Shown one piece after another: positions 1-24,008 of a stretch of 64,000 nucleotides of DNA (its first letter is position 1; every line of letters begins with the position of its first letter). A program made the translations under genes and the position numbers. Source of the stretch: Prochlorococcus sp. AG-355-B18 (GTDB taxonomy: Bacteria > Cyanobacteriota > Cyanobacteriia > PCC-6307 > Cyanobiaceae); NCBI GenBank assembly GCA_003280965.1, contig QCDI01000005.1, positions 1 through 64,000 on the forward strand, given 5' to 3'. The notes beneath the pieces are model-generated. The model made no database searches. It worked only from the letters and a program-made list of their open reading frames with translations, and had not been told where the DNA came from.

Positions 1-1262
1 TGAGTTAAGGTGAGAGACTCTGCTGCACTAAGGGTTGCATTGTTAACCGCAACAGATGTTAAACCGCTACCATTACTAAATTGTCCGGCATTAATATTCG
101 TTGCTAAAGTTGATAGAGCAGAAAGAGTACCTGCGGTTATTGTATTGACATTGGTAAGGTCTATATTGGTTGCCGATGAATTTAAGCTATTTAAATCTGA
201 AGCAGATTGTGAGGCAGCGGTGGGCTTAAAGGTGTAGACAGACTCTGCCTTCGCTCCTCCAGAACCATCACGAAAATCTGTAATATTAGAGATAAAGGTT
301 GACATCGCACTGACTGCGCCAGTAATGCTTGTGATTGCATTAGCTTGTCCAGCTGTACCTGTCTTAATATTGAGAGTAGTAGCATCATTTATAGTATTCA
401 TGTTCTCAGCTGATGCAGTATTTGTACCATCAGCAACTGTTATGGTTAATTGATGAACAGTAGTTGGGCCTGCTGCTTGAGGAAGCGTAGCGAAATCGGT
501 GGCGAGAACGGTAGGGGAAGTAGTTGATATCTCAGCGAATAAATAATTGTCAGCAGTAATAGAAGAAATTTTTCCTACGAGAGAAGCTGCTTGAGCAGAT
601 GTTATTGTTCCGGATACAGAAATTTGATCTGAAACTGAACTATTAGGAGTAGCTCCTATATAAGTGTCGACATCTTCGTCATTAAGGTTAACAGTAAGAG
701 TATGATTCCATTCATTTAAAGCGCTTTGAGAAAATGGGATAATGTTGTTTTGAGCATCAGTTATTCCGCTCTCAATACTATATTTTTTTAAGTTCCAATT
801 AGCGCCTAAATTAGAGTGTCCCACAACTGTATCGGAATAAAATATATCAGCGCCTGAAACATTATTGAATGATTTAATAAAATCTAAATCCTGGCCAACA
901 TTACAAGAGAGAATTTTGATACTTGTAATGCTTAATTTATTAAAAATATGCTCATTTTCTTCTATAAAATCTTTATTGATAAGATCATTCCCAATACAGA
1001 TATGACCTGCATACCCGTGGAATAGTAAATTTATATCTTCGAGAGATTCTCCCTCTAGCTTGGTCAAATTATTTAAAAACTCACTTTTTGATTTAACACC
1101 TATCAATTTGTAGTCGGATGAAAGACAACCAAAAAGAGAATCTAAATCCTGAAGATTAGGATCAAAAAACAATATATGTTTCCCCTTAGAATTAAATGAT
1201 TCTAAGGAGTTTGAAAGAATTGGGGATTTGATTGCAATGCCACCAAGAGGTTTAGGCACCAT
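1..1262 (-). CDS. 5' part of a giant secreted surface protein: N-terminal DUF4347-type domain followed by Ser/Thr/Ala/Asn-rich repeats; runs off the left edge
   Basis: Hand translation from ATG 1262 is stop-free to base 1 (MVPKPLGG...ILFFDPNLQD...LLFHGYAG...ILSCNVGQ...VVGHSNLGANWNL...EWNHTL, then SASDLNSLNSSATNIDLTNVNTIT-type repeats). Adjacent to hlyD/hlyB-type genes. Absent from the ORF track, presumably because it is incomplete. Confidence 0.85.
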   Translation of the reverse strand, partial: MVPKPLGGIAIKSPILSNSLESFNSKGKHILFFDPNLQDLDSLFGCLSSDYKLIGVKSKSEFLNNLTKLEGESLEDINLLFHGYAGHICIGNDLINKDFIEENEHIFNKLSITSIKILSCNVGQDLDFIKSFNNVSGADIFYSDTVVGHSNLGANWNLKKYSIESGITDAQNNIIPFSQSALNEWNHTLTVNLNDEDVDTYIGATPNSSVSDQISVSGTITSAQAASLVGKISSITADNYLFAEISTTSPTVLATDFATLPQAAGPTTVHQLTITVADGTNTASAENMNTINDATTLNIKTGTAGQANAITSITGAVSAMSTFISNITDFRDGSGGAKAESVYTFKPTAASQSASDLNSLNSSATNIDLTNVNTITAGTLSALSTLATNINAGQFSNGSGLTSVAVNNATLSAAESLTLT

Positions 1263-1371
1263 ATTCACACACTAATTATGTTTATATTAACATCACTATT
1301 TGGCTGTAGACAAGTATATTTTGATCTATTGACAAAGAATTATACTAGTAATTTCAACGGAAAACTTAAGA

Positions 1372-1408
1372 ATTTGTCATTGTAATAAGGTTTTACAATA
1401 TGACAAAT
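1372..1408. promoter_or_regulatory. Imperfect inverted repeat upstream of the giant-protein gene
   Basis: ATTTGTCATTGTAA...TTACAATATGACAAAT. Confidence 0.3.
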
Positions 1409-1578
1409 AAAAATCTGTCACTATGTATTTCTAAAATTCCAATTGCAAAAATTTATAAATAAATTTTTCATACAGAATGTAGATTTCTACTTACGTCTCA
1501 AAAATTATTTATTGATATTTTTTTAAAATAATTTATAAAAATATTAATAAATTGATATTTCAAAAGAATCAAAAAAAT

Positions 1579-2931
1579 TTAAAAACTTTTTAAAGAATCA
1601 ATTTTTTGTGTAAGTCCACCTAATAATAACTTTAGGTAGCTAACTTTTCTCAATTTAATATTAGCTTGAAGAGACATTCCAACCTGAAGTGCAAGAGATT
1701 CTCCATTACTTAAGTTTAATTTTTGTTCGTCAAGCTGTACTACAGCAGGGAATCTATATTCTGGTCTTTGTTCAATTTGAGAAGGGACTAATGCATCAGA
1801 ACCAATTGATTTAATTGTTCCATTTAAGACTCCAAAATCTGTAGAGGGGAAGGAATCAATACTTATTTCTACAGGAGCTCCAACTTTGACAAATCCTATT
1901 TTATTACTTGGAATTTCAATATCAGCTTCCAAATCATCAAAAGGAACAATTTTCATAATCGGCTCACTGGATTGAGCAACGTATCCTTCTGTAGTGGGTT
2001 TTAAATCAAAAACAATCCCGCTAACAGGAGACTCAATTGATTGATATTTTAGAGTCACTTTTGCACTCGTTAATTCAGAATTTAATGAGCCAATCTCAGT
2101 TCTCATCCTAGCCTCTTCAGATTCAAGCTTTTCAATATCCTGTGATATTACATTTGTTGCTTTATCCTTCTCAATATTTAATCTTGATAATTCACTTTTC
2201 AATTCATTAAGTTCCATTTTCTTTTCGATGTATTGCAATTTTGAGATGGCACCTTGTTCATATAGAAATTTAATGTCTTTAAGAATTGGAGAATTTATCT
2301 TTATTTTTTCAGATGTATTGCTAATTAATTCATCAATAATTTCTGACTCCTGCAAAAGTTCAGCCTTTTTTAATTTTAGAATTGAGGCTATTTTTTCTAA
2401 TTGAAATTGTTTTTCAAAAATTGCAATTTCCAGAGATCTAAATTTTTCGAATGAAGCCTCTTTATCTAATTGAACCAAGATTTGACCACTTTCTACATTT
2501 TCTCCAGATTTAACTAAGATTTCATCAATAACACCTCCTAAAGGAATTTGTATGTCTTTAACATCTCCTTTTGGGTCAAGCTTTCCAGTTGTCATTACCA
2601 CTTCATCAGTTTTAGCGAAACACAGCCAGAGGAATGCAAAAGATGATGTTCCAATTAGAGCCCAAGTTACAGATTTGAACCAAAAACTGCTTTGTTTTAA
2701 CAGTGATTCATCGAAAGATATTTTCTTAAAGCTAACTTCTACCTTATCTTGTAGTTTATTAAATTGATCTTGGCTTAACTCCAAATACTCTTTAAAAGAC
2801 TTTTCTTTAAGGAATTTAAGAGTCTTTAATTTTTGATTTAATTTAAATTTAACTTTTCTTATTTTGTATAAATTATCTTGAGAGAGAAATTTCTTGATTT
2901 TATTCAGATTCAAATTAATTTTGTCTTTCAT
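1579..2931 (-). CDS. HlyD-family type I secretion membrane fusion protein
   Basis: Single TM segment, GKLDPKGDVKDIQIPLGGVIDEILVKSGE, coiled coil, IESPVSGIVFDL, LQVGMSLQANIKLR. Confidence 0.92.
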   Translation of the reverse strand: MKDKINLNLNKIKKFLSQDNLYKIRKVKFKLNQKLKTLKFLKEKSFKEYLELSQDQFNKLQDKVEVSFKKISFDESLLKQSSFWFKSVTWALIGTSSFAFLWLCFAKTDEVVMTTGKLDPKGDVKDIQIPLGGVIDEILVKSGENVESGQILVQLDKEASFEKFRSLEIAIFEKQFQLEKIASILKLKKAELLQESEIIDELISNTSEKIKINSPILKDIKFLYEQGAISKLQYIEKKMELNELKSELSRLNIEKDKATNVISQDIEKLESEEARMRTEIGSLNSELTSAKVTLKYQSIESPVSGIVFDLKPTTEGYVAQSSEPIMKIVPFDDLEADIEIPSNKIGFVKVGAPVEISIDSFPSTDFGVLNGTIKSIGSDALVPSQIEQRPEYRFPAVVQLDEQKLNLSNGESLALQVGMSLQANIKLRKVSYLKLLLGGLTQKIDSLKSF

Positions 2932-5855
2932 TAAATATTCCCTTTTTGACTTTCAAGTGCAAAATATCTTCCTTTATTTTTTATTAATTGATCATGAGAT
3001 CCAATTTCATCCAACTTACCTTCGTGCATAACCAGAATTAAATCAGAATTTCTTATTGTTGATAATCTATGAGTAATGAAGAAAACTGTATTTTCTTCCA
3101 AATTTTTAATCAAGTTATTACAGACTTTAGATTCTGTATTGTAGTCCAATGCACTGGTTGCCTCATCTAAAATAAGAATTTTTGGTTTACTCAGTAGAGT
3201 TCTAGCAAGTGCTATTCTTTGTCTCTGTCCACCACTAAGAGAAGATCCTCTTTCCCCAACATTAGTACTATAACCATTGGGTAGTTTCATTATAAAATCA
3301 TGAGCCTCTGCTAATTTAGCGGCTCTTACAATATCATCATTATTAGCTTCAGCTTGAGTAAGGGAAATATTGTCAAGAACTGTGCCTGAAAATAAAATTG
3401 GTTCTTGCGGTACTATACCAATTTGCCTTCGAAGAGAATATAGTTCGACCTTATCAATATCATATCCATCAATCTTAATACACCCTTGGCTCGGAGAATA
3501 TAATCTTGAAAGTAATTTCATTAGTGTACTCTTACCACTGCCGCTTTCTCCCACAATTCCAACGAATTGGCCTTTCTCGATAGTAAAACTAACGCTATTA
3601 AGTACGTTAGAATTATTTTTAGTAAAAGTAAAAATTACATCTTCAAAAGAAACATTCCCCTTAACAGGAGGCATTGTTATTTTCTTCTTATCTAATTCAG
3701 TTGACTCTTGTGGGGTATCAATAACATCTCCAAGCCTTTCAAAACTGACCTTAAGTTCTTGTATATTTTGCCATATAGAAGAAAGTCTCAATAAAGGCTG
3801 TGTCACATAACTAGAAATTATTCTAAATGCAATTAGTTGTCCCAAAGTCAATTGTCCTTTCAATACCAAAGTTGCCCCTATCCATAAAACAAGTAATTGA
3901 GATATTTTTTGGAGTACTTGACTTAATTGACCAATAAGAGTTCCACTTATAGTTCTTTCAAAAGTTCGTGTGATATATTTTGAATATAATTGTTGCCATT
4001 TCCACCTACTAATTGTCTCAATATTTTGAGATTTAACAGTTTGTATGGAAGTAATTACTTCTACCAAATGACTTTTGGTTTTGGCATTTTCTTCTGCAGT
4101 TTGTCTATATTGCCTTCTAAAAAGAGGTGCTCCTAATAAAGTTATAAATATCTGAATTGGTACCACTAATAAAGCAACAATTGTCAGTAAAGAGCTATAA
4201 ATGAACATTACAAGAATGTAAATTACAGAAAAAATCGCATCTAAAATAGTTGTTAAAGTCTGTCCAGTAAGGAATTCTCTTATCTTTTCTAGTTCATCAA
4301 TCCTTGATCCCAATTCTCCAACTGGCCTTTTATCAAAATAATTAAGAGGCAATCTTAAAAGGTGATCAATTACCTCAGAACCTAAACGCTGATCTATTCT
4401 GTTAGTTGTTTCTGCGAATAAGAATGTTTTTAAACTCCCCAATATCCCTTCTAATAAAGTAACGAAAAGTAGTGCAATTCCTAAGACTTGAAGAGTGTCT
4501 AAACTTCTTTGGGAAATTACTTTATCGATAATAACCTGAATTAAAAGAGGATTACCTAAAGTAAATAATTGAACTATAAAACTAGCAACTAAAACTTGAA
4601 CCAAAACAAGCTTGTATTTTTTAATTGCAGACCAAAACCAATTTAGACTAAAGACAACTTGAGGCGTCTCTGTTGTCTTTTCAATTAATAAAATCGATAT
4701 CCCTTCTTCGAAGAAAGACTCAATTTTTTCACTAGAAACGCTTATAAAGCCATCAACTGGTGAAGCAATTAAAATTCCCTCTTGGCTACTTTTTATAATT
4801 AAAGCAAAGCTATTTTTCCATTTAATTACACATGGTGTTTGGAGCCTGAATGCCATATTAGAGGGTATCTGCCCCTTGGAAACATGTAATCCAAGATTGG
4901 AAAGAATTTCAGCTATTAATTGAATATCAATTTTTGCACCTCTCGAAATAAAATCTCTTAAGATCTTTTCGATCGAGTCTTTTCTAATTGGAACATTAAG
5001 TATTTTCGAAATCATTTGAAAACAAGCTAATGTTTCTCTTAGTTTTCCATTTCCCTTCACTAATATATTTTCAGGGATTTCTAAATTGTTAAAAATACTA
5101 ACTGGCGCATTTTGAGGAGCATTTTTTATGTCTTTTTTCCCCTCATTATTACCATTAGAAATTAAGAATTCATTATTGTTATTTAATTCATTTATCAATA
5201 AATTATCAAAGAAATTTCGTTCTATACTAAGAAATCGATTACTAAGAAAGTTTTTTGAGTTCTTTAGATTCAAATACTCTGAAAAAGTCTTGACTTCTTT
5301 AAAATTTTGAGAAATTAGACTTGAGGATGTAGAGCTTGAGAAAATCTTAATGTTTTTACCTTTTAATAACTTTTTAATTTCATCATCATTTTTATTTAAA
5401 CAAGAGGCTTTTTTTTCTAGTATTTGAATTAATTCATGAATTTTAAATTTAATATTTGGAACTTCATTTATGACAAATTCTGCAAATTCAATAATTTCAG
5501 CAAGATAATTAATTGAATCAAAATAATTTTTAAACTTTGGATCAATTTCATAATATTTTTTAAATGTTTTATCACTAATCGAAATGACAATTAATTCTGA
5601 TGAAGACCTGACATTTTCACAGGCTTTCTGTTTCAAAATTGAAAAAGCGCCAACAACATCGCCAACTGAAATTTTTTTAACTGCCTTAGGTTGTTCATTA
5701 TCTTCAACAATAATTCTTGCTGTACCTTTTTCAATTAATAGAACTGATCCAGAGATATATTTATCACTTGATATTGATTGCCCAACTTTATATTTAACTT
5801 TTTCTCCATACTTTAAGAAAATTTCCTTAATATAGGTTTTTAAAGATTCCTTCAT
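2931..5855 (-). CDS. HlyB-family T1SS ABC transporter (cNMP-like domain, C39-like domain, TMD, ATPase)
   Basis: Walker A GESGSGKST, signature LSGGQRQR, Walker B LILDEATSALD; LLIQVIIDKVISQRSLDTL transmembrane region. Confidence 0.93.
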   Translation of the reverse strand: MKESLKTYIKEIFLKYGEKVKYKVGQSISSDKYISGSVLLIEKGTARIIVEDNEQPKAVKKISVGDVVGAFSILKQKACENVRSSSELIVISISDKTFKKYYEIDPKFKNYFDSINYLAEIIEFAEFVINEVPNIKFKIHELIQILEKKASCLNKNDDEIKKLLKGKNIKIFSSSTSSSLISQNFKEVKTFSEYLNLKNSKNFLSNRFLSIERNFFDNLLINELNNNNEFLISNGNNEGKKDIKNAPQNAPVSIFNNLEIPENILVKGNGKLRETLACFQMISKILNVPIRKDSIEKILRDFISRGAKIDIQLIAEILSNLGLHVSKGQIPSNMAFRLQTPCVIKWKNSFALIIKSSQEGILIASPVDGFISVSSEKIESFFEEGISILLIEKTTETPQVVFSLNWFWSAIKKYKLVLVQVLVASFIVQLFTLGNPLLIQVIIDKVISQRSLDTLQVLGIALLFVTLLEGILGSLKTFLFAETTNRIDQRLGSEVIDHLLRLPLNYFDKRPVGELGSRIDELEKIREFLTGQTLTTILDAIFSVIYILVMFIYSSLLTIVALLVVPIQIFITLLGAPLFRRQYRQTAEENAKTKSHLVEVITSIQTVKSQNIETISRWKWQQLYSKYITRTFERTISGTLIGQLSQVLQKISQLLVLWIGATLVLKGQLTLGQLIAFRIISSYVTQPLLRLSSIWQNIQELKVSFERLGDVIDTPQESTELDKKKITMPPVKGNVSFEDVIFTFTKNNSNVLNSVSFTIEKGQFVGIVGESGSGKSTLMKLLSRLYSPSQGCIKIDGYDIDKVELYSLRRQIGIVPQEPILFSGTVLDNISLTQAEANNDDIVRAAKLAEAHDFIMKLPNGYSTNVGERGSSLSGGQRQRIALARTLLSKPKILILDEATSALDYNTESKVCNNLIKNLEENTVFFITHRLSTIRNSDLILVMHEGKLDEIGSHDQLIKNKGRYFALESQKGNI

Positions 5856-5875
5856 GAAATAAAAATATGGGAAAT

Positions 5876-6619
5876 TCAGTTAGGTAAAAGAAATTTTTGA
5901 ATAGAATCGACCGCAAGCAAGTTAATCCATTCGTCAAATAAAGATAGCACCATTTTTGTTTTGGTTAACTCATCAAACTTAGCTTCTTTTTTTGCTTCTA
6001 ACATTATCAATAACCAAATATCTCCAACTTTAAAGGGAGCAATAACTTTATTCAAATTTATTTTCAATATTTTCTCCTTAACGGTAAGATTAATCTTAGC
6101 TAAATCTAACGGTCCAACGGTACCATAAGATTTTACATTTCCAATAGCTTTCAAGTTTTCGGAAAATAATTTATCAAAGGAAGTTTCACCAGAATCCAAT
6201 TGAAAAAAGATCTCATAAGCAAAATCAGAATCAAAAAATTCTATATATTTATAGGTATACATATCCAATAGATTTTTATTTTTTATAAAGTTACTTTTTG
6301 CTTTTTCAGCAAATATATCTCCTGCAATAATTAAAACCTTCTTACTATTTAATAAATTTCTTTCATGATCATTCATTAGCATGCCCTTTAGTTTAAGATA
6401 TTTTGATAATTGAGATTCATCTTTAATTTTGTTATTTTTGCAAAATTGTTTATTTGATTCTTTAAAACTAAATTCTATATCTCCTTTCCTTTCGCATAAG
6501 ATATTAATTATGAATTTTTTAACAAAGTGAACAAGAGAGTCATTTTCTCTAAGACAAATAATAAAAAGATCTGGCAAAGATTTTAATCTTAAATTTATAT
6601 CTTCTAAGAGATCATTCAT
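5876..6619 (-). CDS. Divergent PPIC/parvulin-like protein of the kind found with cyanobacterial T1SS loci
   Basis: AYEIFFQLDSGETSFDKL, GTVGPLDL, IAPFKVGDIWLLIMLE, LFDEWI; immediately upstream of the HlyB-type gene. Confidence 0.6.
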   Translation of the reverse strand: MNDLLEDINLRLKSLPDLFIICLRENDSLVHFVKKFIINILCERKGDIEFSFKESNKQFCKNNKIKDESQLSKYLKLKGMLMNDHERNLLNSKKVLIIAGDIFAEKAKSNFIKNKNLLDMYTYKYIEFFDSDFAYEIFFQLDSGETSFDKLFSENLKAIGNVKSYGTVGPLDLAKINLTVKEKILKINLNKVIAPFKVGDIWLLIMLEAKKEAKFDELTKTKMVLSLFDEWINLLAVDSIQKFLLPN

Positions 6620-6855: not shown

Positions 6856-7017
6856 TTAAAAATCTCTTTCTTCATTAAACCCAAAAACAGCATATTGCTC
6901 TGTTGCCCCGCTTAAATCAGATCCATATGCTGCCTGCATGTCACTATAAGCAGAAATATATTTTGAAGCATTAAAAGAACTAATATTTATACCTTCTGAA
7001 TGACCAAACTCCACCAT
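6856..7017 (-). pseudogene. C-terminal remnant (53 aa) of an RTX-like secreted protein repeat
   Basis: MVEFGHSEGINISSFNASKYISAYSDMQAAYGSDLSGATEQYAVFGFNEERDF resembles the FxxxxYxxxYxDLxxAFGxDxxxATxHYxxxGxxEGR repeat. Confidence 0.55.
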
Positions 7018-7075
7018 TACCAACTTGGCTTTTTAAGTAGGTACGGAATTGCTTTAGAACAGAGCCAGAAAGCAT
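6980..7075 (-). pseudogene. Putative N-terminal stub of a tyrosine integrase pointing away from the tRNA 5' end
   Basis: MLSGSVLKQFRTYLKSQVGNG...; its upstream ~130 bp is homologous to the leader of the integrase remnant at 9984. Confidence 0.4.
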
Positions 7076-7210
7076 GCTACAACTTGTAAATCTCTAGGTG
7101 CATTTTAAGGCGCAGATTTCAATAATCAAACGCTATAAAGTACTATAGGAATTACGGACGTCGCAAAAGAAATCTTTAAATTGATTGATATGACTGACGT
7201 TTTTAGATTT

Positions 7211-7283
7211 GGGGCCATAGCTCAGCTGGTAGAGCACCTGCATGGCATGCAGGGGGTCAGCGGTTCGAGTCCGCTTGGCTCCA
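7211..7283 (+). tRNA. tRNA-Ala (GGC)
   Basis: GGGGCCATAGCTCAGCTGGTAGAGCACCTGCATGGCATGCAGGGGGTCAGCGGTTCGAGTCCGCTTGGCTCCA; anticodon arm CCTGC-ATGGCAT-GCAGG. Confidence 0.97.
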
Positions 7284-7322
7284 TTAGGTTTTAGGGATTT
7301 GAGGATAATAATTTAATACAAT

Positions 7323-7343
7323 TAGTGCAAAATCTAGTGCAAA
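7323..7343 (+). repeat. Direct repeat TAGTGCAAA x2 with 12-bp period; candidate integrase arm-type site
   Basis: TAGTGCAAAATCTAGTGCAAA, 40 bp after the tRNA. Confidence 0.45.
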
Positions 7344-7446
7344 TTAAAATGTAATTAGAAGAGTATCAATTGAAGAGAATAGCTCTAGAGATTAAATATC
7401 CAAGTGTTCATTGTTTTTATGAGATCATGAAGTTTAATACATTTAT

Positions 7447-8526
7447 TTAATATCCAAATTTTTTATTTAGCTCTAATAAATTTTCTTTTTTTAAAAATGT
7501 AAGTATTAATTCTTCGAGAATTATTTGATCATCTTTCTCAAACGATTGGGAATTAGTTCTTAGAGTTGAAGTTTTTTTAAATAAATTATTTTTAATTGAA
7601 CCTAATAAATTATCTGTAAAAAGATTGTCATTAAATGAACTATTAATTTTTTTTGATTCAATCTCATTAATATTCAAATTAATCACATCTTCATACCTTA
7701 AAGTAATGCAATCTTCTTTATTTTCATAAAAAATATTTAACTGGTTTTTTATATGTTTTATGTCATTCGCATAGTTTAATGTAAATTGTGTAAACATATC
7801 AGTTAAATTTATTTCATTTCTCCAGTTTGGGAAATTTTCTGAACCATCAAAATTTGTACCAACCTTAAAATACTTGAATTGAAAAAGTGACTTAATAATT
7901 GATTTCATATCTCTAACTACGTTTATAAGAACTATGTTTTGTGATTTAATATTGTCCAATTCATCAAAATGAGAGACGCTTACCGATTGCTTAGGGAGCT
8001 TATTTATTACCAATTCGGTGGGTAAGAATGATCTTCTTCGCCATGGTTCGAAATGTATCCCTTTTTCATCCTTAAAATTTCTATTATCGTCTACATGTCC
8101 ATTTCCAAAATGAAGATCTGTAGGGGTGAAACTCATTTCCTTAAAACAATTTCTCAACAGATATGTACCTGATTTAGGTACGGAATTAATTAATACAGGT
8201 GAAAATTTTGAATTATTATTGATTTTTAATGACTTAAAACAAAATTTTTCAACCAAGTAGAGCAATATATAATTTGAATTTAAGGGGTTGCCGACTAAAA
8301 TCAAAGGGTTAGTAGAAATAATTTTAAAAATTGAAGAAACTTCATTTTTATTATTTAAAAAACAAAGTTTATTATCTTTAACCTCCCATTTTTTTTCATT
8401 ATAGTGTTGATACCCTTTTACACTATTATCATTTTCTAAAATTAAATCAGAAAAATTGGGTCCATTGAAATCTCCATAGGTAAAAATGTAATTTGATAAA
8501 TCAATTTGATTGTCCAAAAAAAACAT
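7447..8526 (-). CDS. Sulfotransferase-domain protein with an uncharacterised N-terminal domain
   Basis: 5'-PSB-like INSVPKSGTYLL, 3'-PB-like VVRDMKSIIKSLF, LRYEDV. Confidence 0.7.
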   Translation of the reverse strand: MFFLDNQIDLSNYIFTYGDFNGPNFSDLILENDNSVKGYQHYNEKKWEVKDNKLCFLNNKNEVSSIFKIISTNPLILVGNPLNSNYILLYLVEKFCFKSLKINNNSKFSPVLINSVPKSGTYLLRNCFKEMSFTPTDLHFGNGHVDDNRNFKDEKGIHFEPWRRRSFLPTELVINKLPKQSVSVSHFDELDNIKSQNIVLINVVRDMKSIIKSLFQFKYFKVGTNFDGSENFPNWRNEINLTDMFTQFTLNYANDIKHIKNQLNIFYENKEDCITLRYEDVINLNINEIESKKINSSFNDNLFTDNLLGSIKNNLFKKTSTLRTNSQSFEKDDQIILEELILTFLKKENLLELNKKFGY

Positions 8527-8772
8527 CTTTAATCTTTGATGAAATCCAAAATCTAGAAATAGTACTTTCTAAATATGTTATTTTATTTGATTCGAATTTT
8601 ATTCAAAATTAAAAATTTTTTGATTTTAGATAAATACGAAGGCAACAAATAGATTCTACAATAAAAGATAATAATTTTTTAAGGTATTTTTTATAACGCT
8701 AATTCCGTGAGAAATTCTGCGAGCTAATCAGCGAAAACAGTTCAAAACCTATCACAGATAGATCAATGATCA

Positions 8773-8817
8773 GCATTGCATTAAGGGGTTAAACAGTTCG
8801 ATTCCAATCGGCTCCAT
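8773..8817 (+). repeat. Degenerate copy of the tRNA-Ala 3' half (att-like remnant 1)
   Basis: GCATTGCATTAAGGGGTTAAACAGTTCGATTCCAATCGGCTCCAT vs 7240-7284: 34/45 identical, ungapped, counted by hand. Confidence 0.75.
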
Positions 8818-9040
8818 GACGATTTTCGCTAGATATTACGAAAGTATGTACAAGAATCCTTAAATATAGGATAGGGATATTAATGTATAAACACTAGCAA
8901 TTATGTTTCTCTTAGAAGATTGGTAACTCAATTAATTTAAATTGAACTAATGTTTTTAAATCGTTGATATTTCCAAATATATACTATTGTAATTATTTTT
9001 TTAACAGAAGAATTAAAATTAAAAAAAATTCTGATTTTAT

Positions 9041-9699
9041 ATGAATTTAAAAAAATCTGATAAGTTTTTATTATTAATTTTATCTATTGATATTCTATTT
9101 ATTTTATTAAGCCTTATTGATTATTTTTCTGATTTTAACTTTAGAGATTTTAATGTAGCTATTGAAAATCAATTTGCTGAGCAATTCCAATATTTAAAAT
9201 TTATTGGAATAGCAATCATAAGTTTTCTTCTTGCAATAAAAAAAGATCTTCTCAATTCATAGTTTTTATGATTATTCCTATATATCTTTATTGGGATGAT
9301 TCAAGACAATTGCATGAAAGATTAGGCACTGAAATAGCATCTTTTCTCTATGATGGTAACCCTAACGATACCTTAATTAGGGAATTTCGATATCAAGATA
9401 TTGGAGAAATTCTATATATGTCCATAATTGGATTTATTCTTCTATTTACGTTCCTCATTTGCTATAGATTATCCAATTCCTTTGATAGATATTTTCTAAA
9501 AAATATATTAAAACTATTTATTGTTTATGGAATTTTCGCTTTATTTGTAGATTCTATACATCAGTTATCCGAGGGATTTATGTGGTATTTACTAGCAGTA
9601 TATGAAGATGGTGGAGAAATGATCCCTATAAGTTTTATAACTGCATATTTTTTTGAATATCTAATTTGCAATAAAAAAAATATGAAATTTAAATTTTAA
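9041..9699 (+). pseudogene. Multi-pass membrane protein split by a 1-nt frameshift in an A7 run (~219 aa if fused)
   Basis: ORFs 9041-9262 and 9268-9699 join if A7 (9238-9244) is read as A8: ...AIKKRSSQFIVFMIIP... Confidence 0.7.
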
Positions 9700-9805
9700 T
9701 GATATTTGAATTAATTTTTTTTAAAAATTGAATTTTTGCGAGGTTTCCTTATAGCAAGATGTAAAAAAACTTCAAACCCTTACAACAGCTTATTTGTGGG
9801 TCTAT

Positions 9806-9847
9806 ATGACATGAAGGAGGTCAGTGGTTCGAATCCGCTTGACTCAA
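9806..9847 (+). repeat. Degenerate copy of the tRNA-Ala 3' half (att-like remnant 2)
   Basis: ATGACATGAAGGAGGTCAGTGGTTCGAATCCGCTTGACTCAA vs 7242-7283: 35/42 identical, ungapped, counted by hand. Confidence 0.85.
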
Positions 9848-9983
9848 CTTATTTTTGCTAGTCATATCAGGGGTTTTGAGGGCGTTTTCGTAAAAGCATA
9901 ACTTTTGTACATACTTGTCCAAGCTTGTTTAGTCAATTCTGCACCCTAAAATGCATTTAAGGACATTCTTAAGTTGCTACAAA

Positions 9984-10381
9984 ATGAAACCTTTAAATTG
10001 GGTCGAACTTACAAGGCAAAAATCAAAGCCAGAAATGGTTTTGGTTTGTCAATAAAAGGAATAGAAAACAAAATAAGGTAATAATAAAAATTGTTTATAG
10101 ATTTTCTACTGGTCAAAGATCAACAGTTATTACTGACATCGAATGGAATACTAATAACTGAAAAAAGATTCAAGATTTAATAATAGAATTTGAGACTTTG
10201 ATGTATGAAAGGCATGTTTTTTTAAAAAAAGCATATGAATTAATTGGGAAGCATTAGTAGATGAATTTGTTAATAAAGAGGTAATAGAAGAGAAACAACT
10301 TAGTGAGATTTGAGGTTAAGAATGAAGCGAGCTTTACAAGCGCTAAATAATAAACCACTTCCAAGAAGACGAGGTAAATGA
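9984..10381 (+). pseudogene. Decayed N-terminal part of a picocyanobacterial tRNA-targeting tyrosine integrase
   Basis: Frameshifted or stopped pieces: MKPLNWVELTRQ/IKARNGFGLSIKG/VYRFSTGQRSTVITDIEWNTNN*/NWEALVDEFVNKE/RGNRRETT**DLRLRMKRALQALNNKPLPR. Lies ~135 bp after an att-like copy. Family recognised from memory only. Confidence 0.55.
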
Positions 10382-23390: not shown

Positions 23391-24008
23391 TTAAACCTTC
23401 CTCCAGACTGCCAGTAACTTGCCCTGAAGAACAACTTCATCCAAACCTAACTCTATTGGTTCATAAGCTGGATTAGCAGCTTCTAAGAAAATTTTTTGTC
23501 CTTTTTTATTGAAATATTTCAAGGTCGTACCTAGTCCTGGGACCATAGCACTCACAATCATTCCATTTTTAAGAGAATAAGAATCTTTAATAGGTTCCAT
23601 CAACACCATATCCCCATGCGCGATACATGCATCTATCATTGAATCACCATTTACGGTTAAGGCGAAAACATCCTTTTTCTGTAAGACTTCAGATAAATCT
23701 AAATTTTCATTAACATCAGAATAAGTTTCAATTAAACCACCTGCCGCGACAGAACCCATAATTGGAACTCCACCTGTGATTTCATCTACTATTTGCATAG
23801 TTCTAGCTTTGCCTTCTTGCCACGATATGTATCCTTTTTCCTGTAAATGTTTTAAACGACTTTGAATTGGAGCAGGGGATTTAAGACCCATGGCTTGCAT
23901 CATTTGCCTAATCGAAGGACTATGTTGGAAGTCCCTCATATAGTCCTTTATCCATGCATAAAGCTCATTCTGAGCATCTGTAAGATTATTACCTTCAGAG
24001 GTTTTCAT
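23391..24008 (-). CDS. lexA: SOS repressor LexA
   Basis: SPSIRQMMQAMGLKSPAPIQSRL, GSVAAG, VNGDSM, TTLK. Confidence 0.96.
   Translation of the reverse strand: MKTSEGNNLTDAQNELYAWIKDYMRDFQHSPSIRQMMQAMGLKSPAPIQSRLKHLQEKGYISWQEGKARTMQIVDEITGGVPIMGSVAAGGLIETYSDVNENLDLSEVLQKKDVFALTVNGDSMIDACIAHGDMVLMEPIKDSYSLKNGMIVSAMVPGLGTTLKYFNKKGQKIFLEAANPAYEPIELGLDEVVLQGKLLAVWRKV

Follow-up and report, generated by a model that had tools for sequence, protein, structure and literature searches.

Tycheposons of Prochlorococcus are the closest described relatives of the elements considered here. They use tRNA-Ala(GGC) as a target, come with partial tRNA repeats, tandem arrays and remnants, and can carry phosphite cargo (Hackl et al., 10.1101/2020.12.28.424599). 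In the part of this preprint consulted, the tRNA is proximal to the element and one integrase is assigned to each tRNA. The locus analysed here lies in a 64,000-nt stretch of Prochlorococcus sp. AG-355-B18 (assembly GCA_003280965.1, contig QCDI01000005.1, positions 1 to 64,000, forward strand; hereafter the window), which contains an intact, single-copy tRNA-Ala(GGC) gene (7211-7284, + strand) and two mirror-image modules, A (7076-7210, - strand) and B (9848-9983, + strand). These modules are very probably the leftover attachment (att) arms of sister tycheposon-type lineages that entered one tRNA from opposite sides. The locus shares with tycheposons the tRNA-Ala(GGC), an inward tyrosine integrase at one end, partial tRNA repeats, tandems and decayed remnants. 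It differs from the tycheposon model, as far as the consulted part of the preprint goes, in that several integrase lineages use one tRNA in both orientations and in that upstream entry appears to move the tRNA into the island.

Related arrangements have been described elsewhere. Islander contains 159 5'-fragment islands among 3919, and 2083 of the 3919 belong to the anticodon-centred crossover class (PMC4383910). An island upstream of the gene with a displaced 5' fragment is common to both data sets, whereas neither sister integrases at one site in both orientations nor a relocation of the tRNA is described in the part of that article consulted. In tRNA-dependent lysogeny, the host comes to rely on element DNA for a tRNA once a tyrosine integrase has acted at the attB within its gene, and related integrases differ in the extent of the tRNA in attP (PMC10865867). 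The phages in the consulted part of that work destroy the host gene and bring a separate full tRNA, whereas here the gene is rebuilt at the junction; the elements supply only a 5' half and an upstream region and do not amount to tRNA-dependent lysogeny. The Synechococcus tRNA-Phe insertions also show iterated integration at one tRNA with remnants, the integrase being proximal or distal, but in the consulted part they are one-sided and concern a different tRNA (PMC8995045). The consulted part of PMC13626063 held nothing relevant. Fig. 6b of Hackl et al. treats 5' and 3' tRNA segments separately, with the Ala tRNA among the most skewed, so that 5'-half usage may have been known to these authors. 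This means that tycheposons at this tRNA and 5'-fragment islands are already known. A search that covered neither the supplements nor the journal version of Hackl et al., which may show both orientations, found no publication in which sister integrases enter one tRNA from both sides or in which this tRNA is relocated.

Modules A and B are homologous. The reverse complement of 7060-7209 aligns with 9849-9990 at a local score of 22; dinucleotide shuffles gave a mean of 9.3 (standard deviation 1.4, maximum 17), and none of 5000 reached 22. With stricter scoring the pair obtained 33, a value equalled by one of 5000 shuffles. Among random genome segments, 3 of 20000 scored 22, a count that may include the modules themselves (the maximum of 133 must). 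Profiles built from relatives detect the other module in the window: the B profile matches A with E 8e-6, the A profile matches B with E 1.5e-4. The mirror-image similarity from which the original prediction started is thus confirmed. The prediction also placed the motifs TGATATGACT (7186-7195, module A) and AGTCATATCA (9860-9869, + strand, module B) correctly. The module coordinates it gave hold as well, except that the start codon behind module B lies at 9984; a second, decayed 3'-half copy (about 8773-8817) had been overlooked.

In relatives, both modules run into intact integrase genes, as had been predicted, and for this reason the objection that the modules might lack an integrase link elsewhere falls away. 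Module A is identified as the integrase-side att arm of an upstream-integrating element by comparison of arm sequences and by intact integrases behind the arm in loci L002, L003 and L194. The segment comprising tRNA, arm and integrase stub is 94.7% identical over 281 nt to L002, where the open reading frame (ORF) encodes an intact integrase of 439 amino acids (aa). In the window, only about 22 codons of this A1-type tyrosine integrase are left (7008-7075, - strand), and homology to the intact gene ends near 7008. Module B, the corresponding arm of a downstream-integrating element, is 97% identical to the arm preceding an intact integrase in L039/L077. It is followed by a B-type pseudogene (9984-10367, + strand) that retains the 5' third only, with frameshifts and a 40-nt deletion; it is 87% identical to L077 over 609 columns, and its protein matches come in pieces. 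The L002 integrase matches a PHROG integrase family (E 6e-13), and PF00589 was matched at E<=0.01 by 14 of 18 aligned integrase members. Site-specific tyrosine recombinases are thus encoded by intact ORFs of the relatives, and the window has only stubs of such genes. With both integrases broken, no intact, delimited element is present in the window, neither stub has a replication module or cargo beside it there, and a search of the whole assembly (24 contigs, 1.58 Mb, 31% GC) with the integrase alignment yielded no match at E<=1e-40. In a viral collection, neither an integrase relative nor a 5'-half match was found; six 3'-half matches had other arms.

Complete elements were found in relatives on both sides of the tRNA. 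On the upstream side, a direct repeat of the first 40-42 tRNA nucleotides delimits each element; such elements occur in genomes G112 (12.9 kb), G073 (16.6 kb), G087, G091 (6.4 kb), G052 (31 kb) and G280 (11.9 kb). A 5' fragment upstream in the same orientation with an integrase between, as in 5'-fragment tDNA islands, is present with an intact integrase in G112, G091 and G052 and with a truncated one in G073, G280 and G087; the window itself does not show this arrangement. Downstream elements have 3'-half repeats starting at nt 28-31 (G018, G126), and the 5' and 3' halves overlap on the anticodon arm only. Partial tRNA repeats thus exist on both sides in relatives, and in the window as 3' halves, a 5' half not having been found. 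Among 285 genomes searched, 204 had any match to the Ala 5' half and 13 of these a second one. Ten of the 13 were examined, of which G040 and G234 contain reversed copies and G170 a second, hybrid tRNA. The A1 elements of relatives carry an AAA_25/DnaB-like gene, ACR3, a phosphonate/phosphite ABC transporter, in this case with a dehydrogenase, or restriction-modification-like genes. Since phosphite cargo is listed and 5' and 3' segments are compared by Hackl et al., the A1 upstream element is probably in their catalogue, to judge from the consulted part. On metagenome contigs, a distal arm is joined to core, half and integrase (L196, L197, L199 and L201-L205 with the 3' half, L210 and L211 with the 5' half). 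These joins fit an excised circle or a tandem alike.

To count arms, tRNA flanks were collected from 145 of 201 genomes with matches; 143 had an intact tRNA and 142 enough flank, and the ranking used slightly favours module A. Arms were called at a threshold of 22 (99.9th percentile of the background, 16-18). Upstream of the tRNA, 71 of the 142 genomes have an A1 arm, 12 an A2 and 11 an A3 arm (94 of the A family), and 48 none of these. A B arm lies directly downstream in 29 genomes, and 21 have both an A-family and a B arm. Full-length integrases are scarce among the 285 genomes (A1 2, A2 4 and A3 1, seven of A type in total, and B 4).

From all loci, 35 distinct integrases were obtained, 22 of which adjoin tRNA-Ala(GGC) or its half. 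Ten of these lie upstream (A1, A2, A3) and 11 downstream (B), and one lies at the far end of a downstream element. All 21 distinct proximal integrases are directed away from the tRNA or half next to them. The A and B types share 53-57% identity; homologues of these integrases occur in Prochlorococcus beside Gly, Tyr, Thr and Pro tRNAs as well. In a tree of 17 of the 35 sequences plus three unplaced proteins, A1, A2 and B form one clade with 100% ultrafast bootstrap (UFBoot) support. A topology uniting all upstream-type integrases was rejected in an approximately unbiased (AU) test on 13 of the 35 sequences (p 7e-6). The parsimonious reading leans towards B as the derived type, with outgroup branches at 43-51% support.

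Related integrases also lie 3' of tRNA-Gly(GCC) and tRNA-Tyr(GTA) (L245-L249, L322). These two are not among the seven island tRNAs in the consulted part of the preprint by Hackl et al. In G259, a Gly 3' half is flanked on both sides by divergent integrases. In L378 and L382, which belong to other genera of the family, an upstream integrase or its remnant is located at tRNA-Ala(GGC); thus, upstream entry is not confined to the genus.

The att sites of A and B have the same geometry. Read toward the integrase, the proximal site consists of distal arm or host DNA, core, tRNA half, AGTCATATCA-type motif, TGCACC-type repeat pair and start codon, as determined in the 19 of the 21 proximal Ala integrases that had enough flank. 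The start codon is 170-176 bp away from the loop centre, or 161 bp in an arm that has a deletion. Measured from the loop centre, the motif of A and B in the window lies at 50 and 51 bp, the first repeat at 131 bp in both (in B, the pair begins at 9940) and the ATG at 170 and 175 bp. The direct-repeat pair TGCGCCTTAAA / TGCACCTAGAG of module A (7092-7114, - strand) likely represents arm-type sites of the integrase (Int), by analogy with the att anatomy of the lambda family. A comparable repeat pair sits at the distal end of complete A1 elements. The TGATATGACT motif is common to A and B arms and therefore probably a binding site for an accessory protein. Weak homology also connects the distal arms of the A and B elements, whose scores were reached by 0-3 of 2000 shuffles.

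The core is the anticodon arm CCTGC-ATGGCAT-GCAGG (7237-7253), a palindrome except for its central base at 7245. The genome has 37 tRNAs, and only in Ala(GGC) and Gly(GCC) is the 17-bp anticodon arm palindromic save the centre. Read toward the integrase, the core is ATGCCAT in A and ATGGCAT in B; the central base is the sole difference. In lambda-family integrases, the 7-bp overlap sets the direction of recombination. Because the anticodon arm is palindromic apart from the central base, att sites of one design can point in both directions. The repeat ends and the geometry lead us to infer that A and B elements share the anticodon loop as crossover site but use it in opposite orientations, each with a different half for repairing the gene. 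One ancestral att site would then have changed direction and swapped the carried half. The original prediction had related elements target the two halves of the tRNA. Entry from both sides holds up: complete elements exist on either side, the 21 genomes mentioned above have both arms, and in G126 intact integrases lie upstream as well as downstream. The two targets would merge into one, the same anticodon loop. If a palindromic anticodon arm were enough, every tRNA that has one should show two-way entry; this expectation was not borne out for Gly(GCC), and a search for a second 5'-half match of this tRNA found none in 223 genomes.

Upstream entry has consequences for the position of the tRNA. 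In the native state, found in 11 genomes, lexA ends 67-69 bp before the tRNA. In 27 loci of other genera, lexA is at most 110 bp from the tRNA in 16, 278-488 bp in four (one with an integrase remnant between) and more than 1.5 kb in six (one with a near-full-length upstream integrase match); one tRNA lies at a contig end. The place just behind lexA, shared by the 11 genomes and most loci of other genera, is thus the ancestral one. In 90 genomes, lexA and the tRNA share a contig; the tRNA is native in 11 of them, displaced in the same orientation in 63 (median 5.4 kb) and inverted in 16. Coordinates were entered by hand, and genomes with the two genes on different contigs or in unlisted rows were excluded, so that short distances are favoured. 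This genome is among the inverted ones: lexA (23391-24008, - strand), the ancestral upstream neighbour, is 16 kb away on the opposite strand. A arms were found in none of the 11 native genomes, in 41 of the 61 displaced genomes that were scored and in 13 of the 16 inverted ones. Three genomes (G091, G142, G280) have retained the native promoter with an orphan 5' half behind lexA, and their intact tRNA is elsewhere. The tRNA was detected in 84 of 92 near-complete genomes. In all likelihood, upstream entrants have moved the tRNA off its original position in most genomes examined (79 of 90 have left it).

The following mechanism would account for these data. Sister tyrosine integrases would recombine at the same 7-bp overlap in the anticodon loop of tRNA-Ala(GGC). 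In B-type elements, the tRNA 3' half would sit between core and arm; on downstream insertion, they would deposit a 3'-half copy at their far end. A-type elements would carry the 5' half and insert upstream, so that the host 5' half and the native promoter stay beside lexA and the repaired tRNA ends up behind the arm of the element itself. Since upstream entry severs the tRNA from its promoter, the module-A arm should supply one; the need to drive tRNA transcription would explain why the arm outlives the integrase. The best-conserved block of decaying A1 arms (7133-7149) contains -10-like hexamers on both strands and is a candidate for an element-borne tRNA promoter. In 71 A1 arms, its mean column conservation is 0.92 (15-nt bin) compared to 0.75-0.87 in other bins. 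Both elements are now dead in this genome, at least two later insertions having pushed module B 2.6 kb off the tRNA, and the segment is inverted. The wider proposal is put forward tentatively, at slightly less than even confidence, and is drawn from sequence comparison: by a change of the central overlap base and a swap of the carried half, the integrase family would have reversed its direction, with occasional wrong-way joins; most genomes of this group of Prochlorococcus would transcribe the tRNA from a selected fossil att arm instead of its ancestral promoter; and the tRNA would migrate and flip within a cell-surface island that grows and is reshuffled on both sides.

Several observations weigh against parts of this picture. 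The L002 integrase itself has no Pfam or NCBIfam match, and a PDB sequence search with the integrase alignment gave none. The order within the A1/A2/B clade varies with the program: A1 pairs with B in FastTree, whereas IQ-TREE pairs A2 with B (59%); none of the three orders was rejected by the AU test. A consensus promoter scan of module A returned no site on the + strand and one minus-strand site at chance level. RNA runs contributed small shares, as contigs only, and these contigs give no start site for the tRNA. No recognisable arm was found in 20 of the 61 scored displaced genomes. The anticodon arm of tRNA-Gly(GCC) is just as palindromic, and related integrases lie downstream of this tRNA, yet its upstream region is conserved in the eight loci displayed. 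Since Gly(GCC) shows no upstream entry, the palindrome permits two-way entry but is not sufficient for it. Neither the far end of the A element nor the inversion breakpoints are seen in this assembly. A 5'-half copy had been expected to the left of the window, but the window begins where contig C5 begins, so the contig holds no sequence there, and blastn as well as nhmmer with a six-sequence profile found neither a 5'-half copy nor a distal A arm in the whole assembly. With 24 contigs and an island broken within the gene of a giant protein, the missing 5' half is no proof of absence.

How module A came to its present place in this genome can be explained in more than one way. An A element may have joined a distal downstream core in the wrong direction. 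If Int later inverted the DNA between the two facing cores, the tRNA would have been rebuilt on the opposite strand, with module A pointing away from lexA. This sub-scenario is compatible with the preferred reading of two sister lineages and predicts the layout of the window. The intermediate it requires is seen in G234, where a downstream core, preceded by the arm type found behind the tRNA in the window, is followed by a 5' half in reverse and then by module A and the stub of an integrase. Read in the sense of that half, its central base is flipped; a comparable but degenerate junction exists in G040. Judged by its sequence, the G234 junction reads as a snapshot of wrong-way joining. In keeping with this route, 13 of the 16 inverted genomes have an A arm, and genomes with close relatives of this lexA (G051, G052, G021; 92-95%) lack the inversion. 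Against it, non-inverted genomes often carry A arms as well (41 of 61), and an ordinary inversion or a replacement of island DNA by homologous recombination yields the same layout. Furthermore, the predicted reversed 5' half was not detected at 10.4-23.3 kb, and neither such a half nor a native promoter was found near lexA in any of the eight inverted loci scanned, the window and seven others. Hence, we consider the wrong-way route possible, with the balance somewhat against it.

The original prediction went further and assigned the type I secretion system (T1SS)/giant-protein block to the upstream and the glycan block to the downstream element, as cargo or flank acquired independently. The T1SS block (1-6619, - strand: an unassigned ORF, HlyB-like and HlyD-like genes and the start of a DUF4347 giant protein) does directly adjoin the A stub, in G117 a distant T1SS begins 1.2 kb 5' of the tRNA and faces away from that gene, and an import of flanking material by elements is proposed in the consulted part of Hackl et al. 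(10.1101/2020.12.28.424599). Against this, the assembly contains no distal 5' half or arm, and the inversion of the tRNA puts the T1SS on the side away from lexA, originally downstream. No T1SS was recognised in the ORF lists of the complete A elements read for this purpose (G112/G069-type, G073, G280, G091, G052). Of the four closest homologues of the gene at 5876-6619, the one that shares a contig with its tRNA (G129, 44%) lies 3' of it; further homologues lie 3' in G139 and G018 and 5' in G117. T1SS homologues of relatives as a whole are found on either side of the tRNA or far off. Contig C1 of this genome starts with giant-protein repeats, the stretch ends at tRNA-Arg(TCT), and between them lie genes that we take, from their translations, to be rml-like and other glycan genes. 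Three contigs, C5, C23 (an 814-codon open frame) and C1 (C-terminal repeats), probably encode parts of the DUF4347 giant protein, the join being putative. If C1 joins C5 past the C-terminus of the giant protein, glycan genes probably lie on both sides of the tRNA. In its simple form, the cargo claim is unlikely, and we do not uphold it.

The last alternative, that module A is the conserved promoter region of the tRNA itself and resembles B by chance or through a local inverted duplication, can appeal to module A being the commonest sequence upstream of the tRNA (71 of 142 genomes), but it is highly improbable: the native upstream region of the 11 genomes is a different 67-69-bp spacer behind lexA, lexA is at most 110 bp from the tRNA in 16 of the 27 loci of other genera, intact integrases follow module A, A and B diverge from each other far more than each does from its own kin elsewhere (94.7% and 97% identity), and G280 and G091 hold the native promoter with a 5' half and, in addition, an arm with an intact tRNA.

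The remaining features of the window fit into this framework of two-sided entry or accompany it. On the 3' side of the tRNA, at least three insertions have left arms of three different kinds. Directly behind the tRNA (7285-7350, + strand) lies a further downstream-type arm with a TAGTGCAAAA repeat pair, unrelated to module B; a near-identical arm is found behind the tRNA in G019 and behind a 3' half in G234. In the latter (L400:1830-1925), the distance from the 3' half to the next core is only about 100 bp, which suggests a cargo-free mini-element. Between the tRNA and the first 3'-half copy, a gene with a sulfotransferase domain is located (7447-8526, - strand; PF00685, E 4e-8). It is followed by an CTGCGAGC-type arm with the decayed 3'-half copy (8700-8817, + strand; half at 8773-8817, 76% over 45 nt), the arm scoring 38 against L083. 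Two short, hydrophobic-looking ORFs lie between both 3'-half copies (9041-9699, + strand); a family was not assigned, and the ORF at 9268-9699 has no Pfam or NCBIfam match. Then comes a decayed CTGCGAGC-type arm with a weak score of 21 and the second 3'-half copy (9740-9847, + strand; half at 9806-9847, loop centre 9809), which is 85% identical to the tRNA over 40 nt (9806-9845). On the other side, the A1 stub adjoins a 55-codon fragment of giant-protein C-terminal repeats (6856-7023, - strand; 68% over 47 aa to repeats at the start of C1). This contact is a deletion or inversion junction rather than the interior of an element. An Rfam scan placed the tRNA alone above the gathering threshold.

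Elsewhere in this genome (G000), an apparently intact 7.6-kb element with a perfect 46-nt 3'-half repeat is found at tRNA-Pro(TGG) (C1:99108-106766, L319); its inward-facing integrase of 416 aa sits at the far end, and a VapE-like gene is also present. A perfect 45-nt orphan 3' half of tRNA-Thr(GGT) lies on C16 (2097-2141). In G052 (C1:1276333-1307804; L326, L327), the 31 kb between the Ala 5'-half repeats hold three tRNA-Pro 3' halves, i.e. elements of one tRNA are nested inside an element of another; the stretch also contains what presumably are nitrate-assimilation-like genes. The A1 element on contig C16 of G280 (L401:3084-10464) includes genes for an Eco57I-type methylase and a PLD/SNF2 helicase, probable defence cargo by their sequence. 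In G170 (C21; L044 / L398), the bases just 5' of the anticodon stem of a hybrid tRNA-Ala mirror the 3' side, and A2 and B stubs flank it; a second, normal copy on C4 is inverted with respect to lexA. The tRNA-Ala(GGC) of 143 genomes occurs in more than 30 sequence variants, which differ mainly in the T arm and show paired changes. Such variety would be expected if the halves were repeatedly swapped for element-borne copies.

The published picture of one-way growth from a fixed tRNA with one integrase type breaks at tRNA-Ala(GGC), where sister integrases work in both directions and the tRNA has moved in 79 of 90 scorable genomes. This would change how gene age and origin are read along the variable glycan island. 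A natural pair of 55%-identical integrases with mirror att sites provides a system for studying how overlap asymmetry sets direction. Finally, the locus is a candidate for a population-wide case in which a host gene depends on the promoter of a mobile element.

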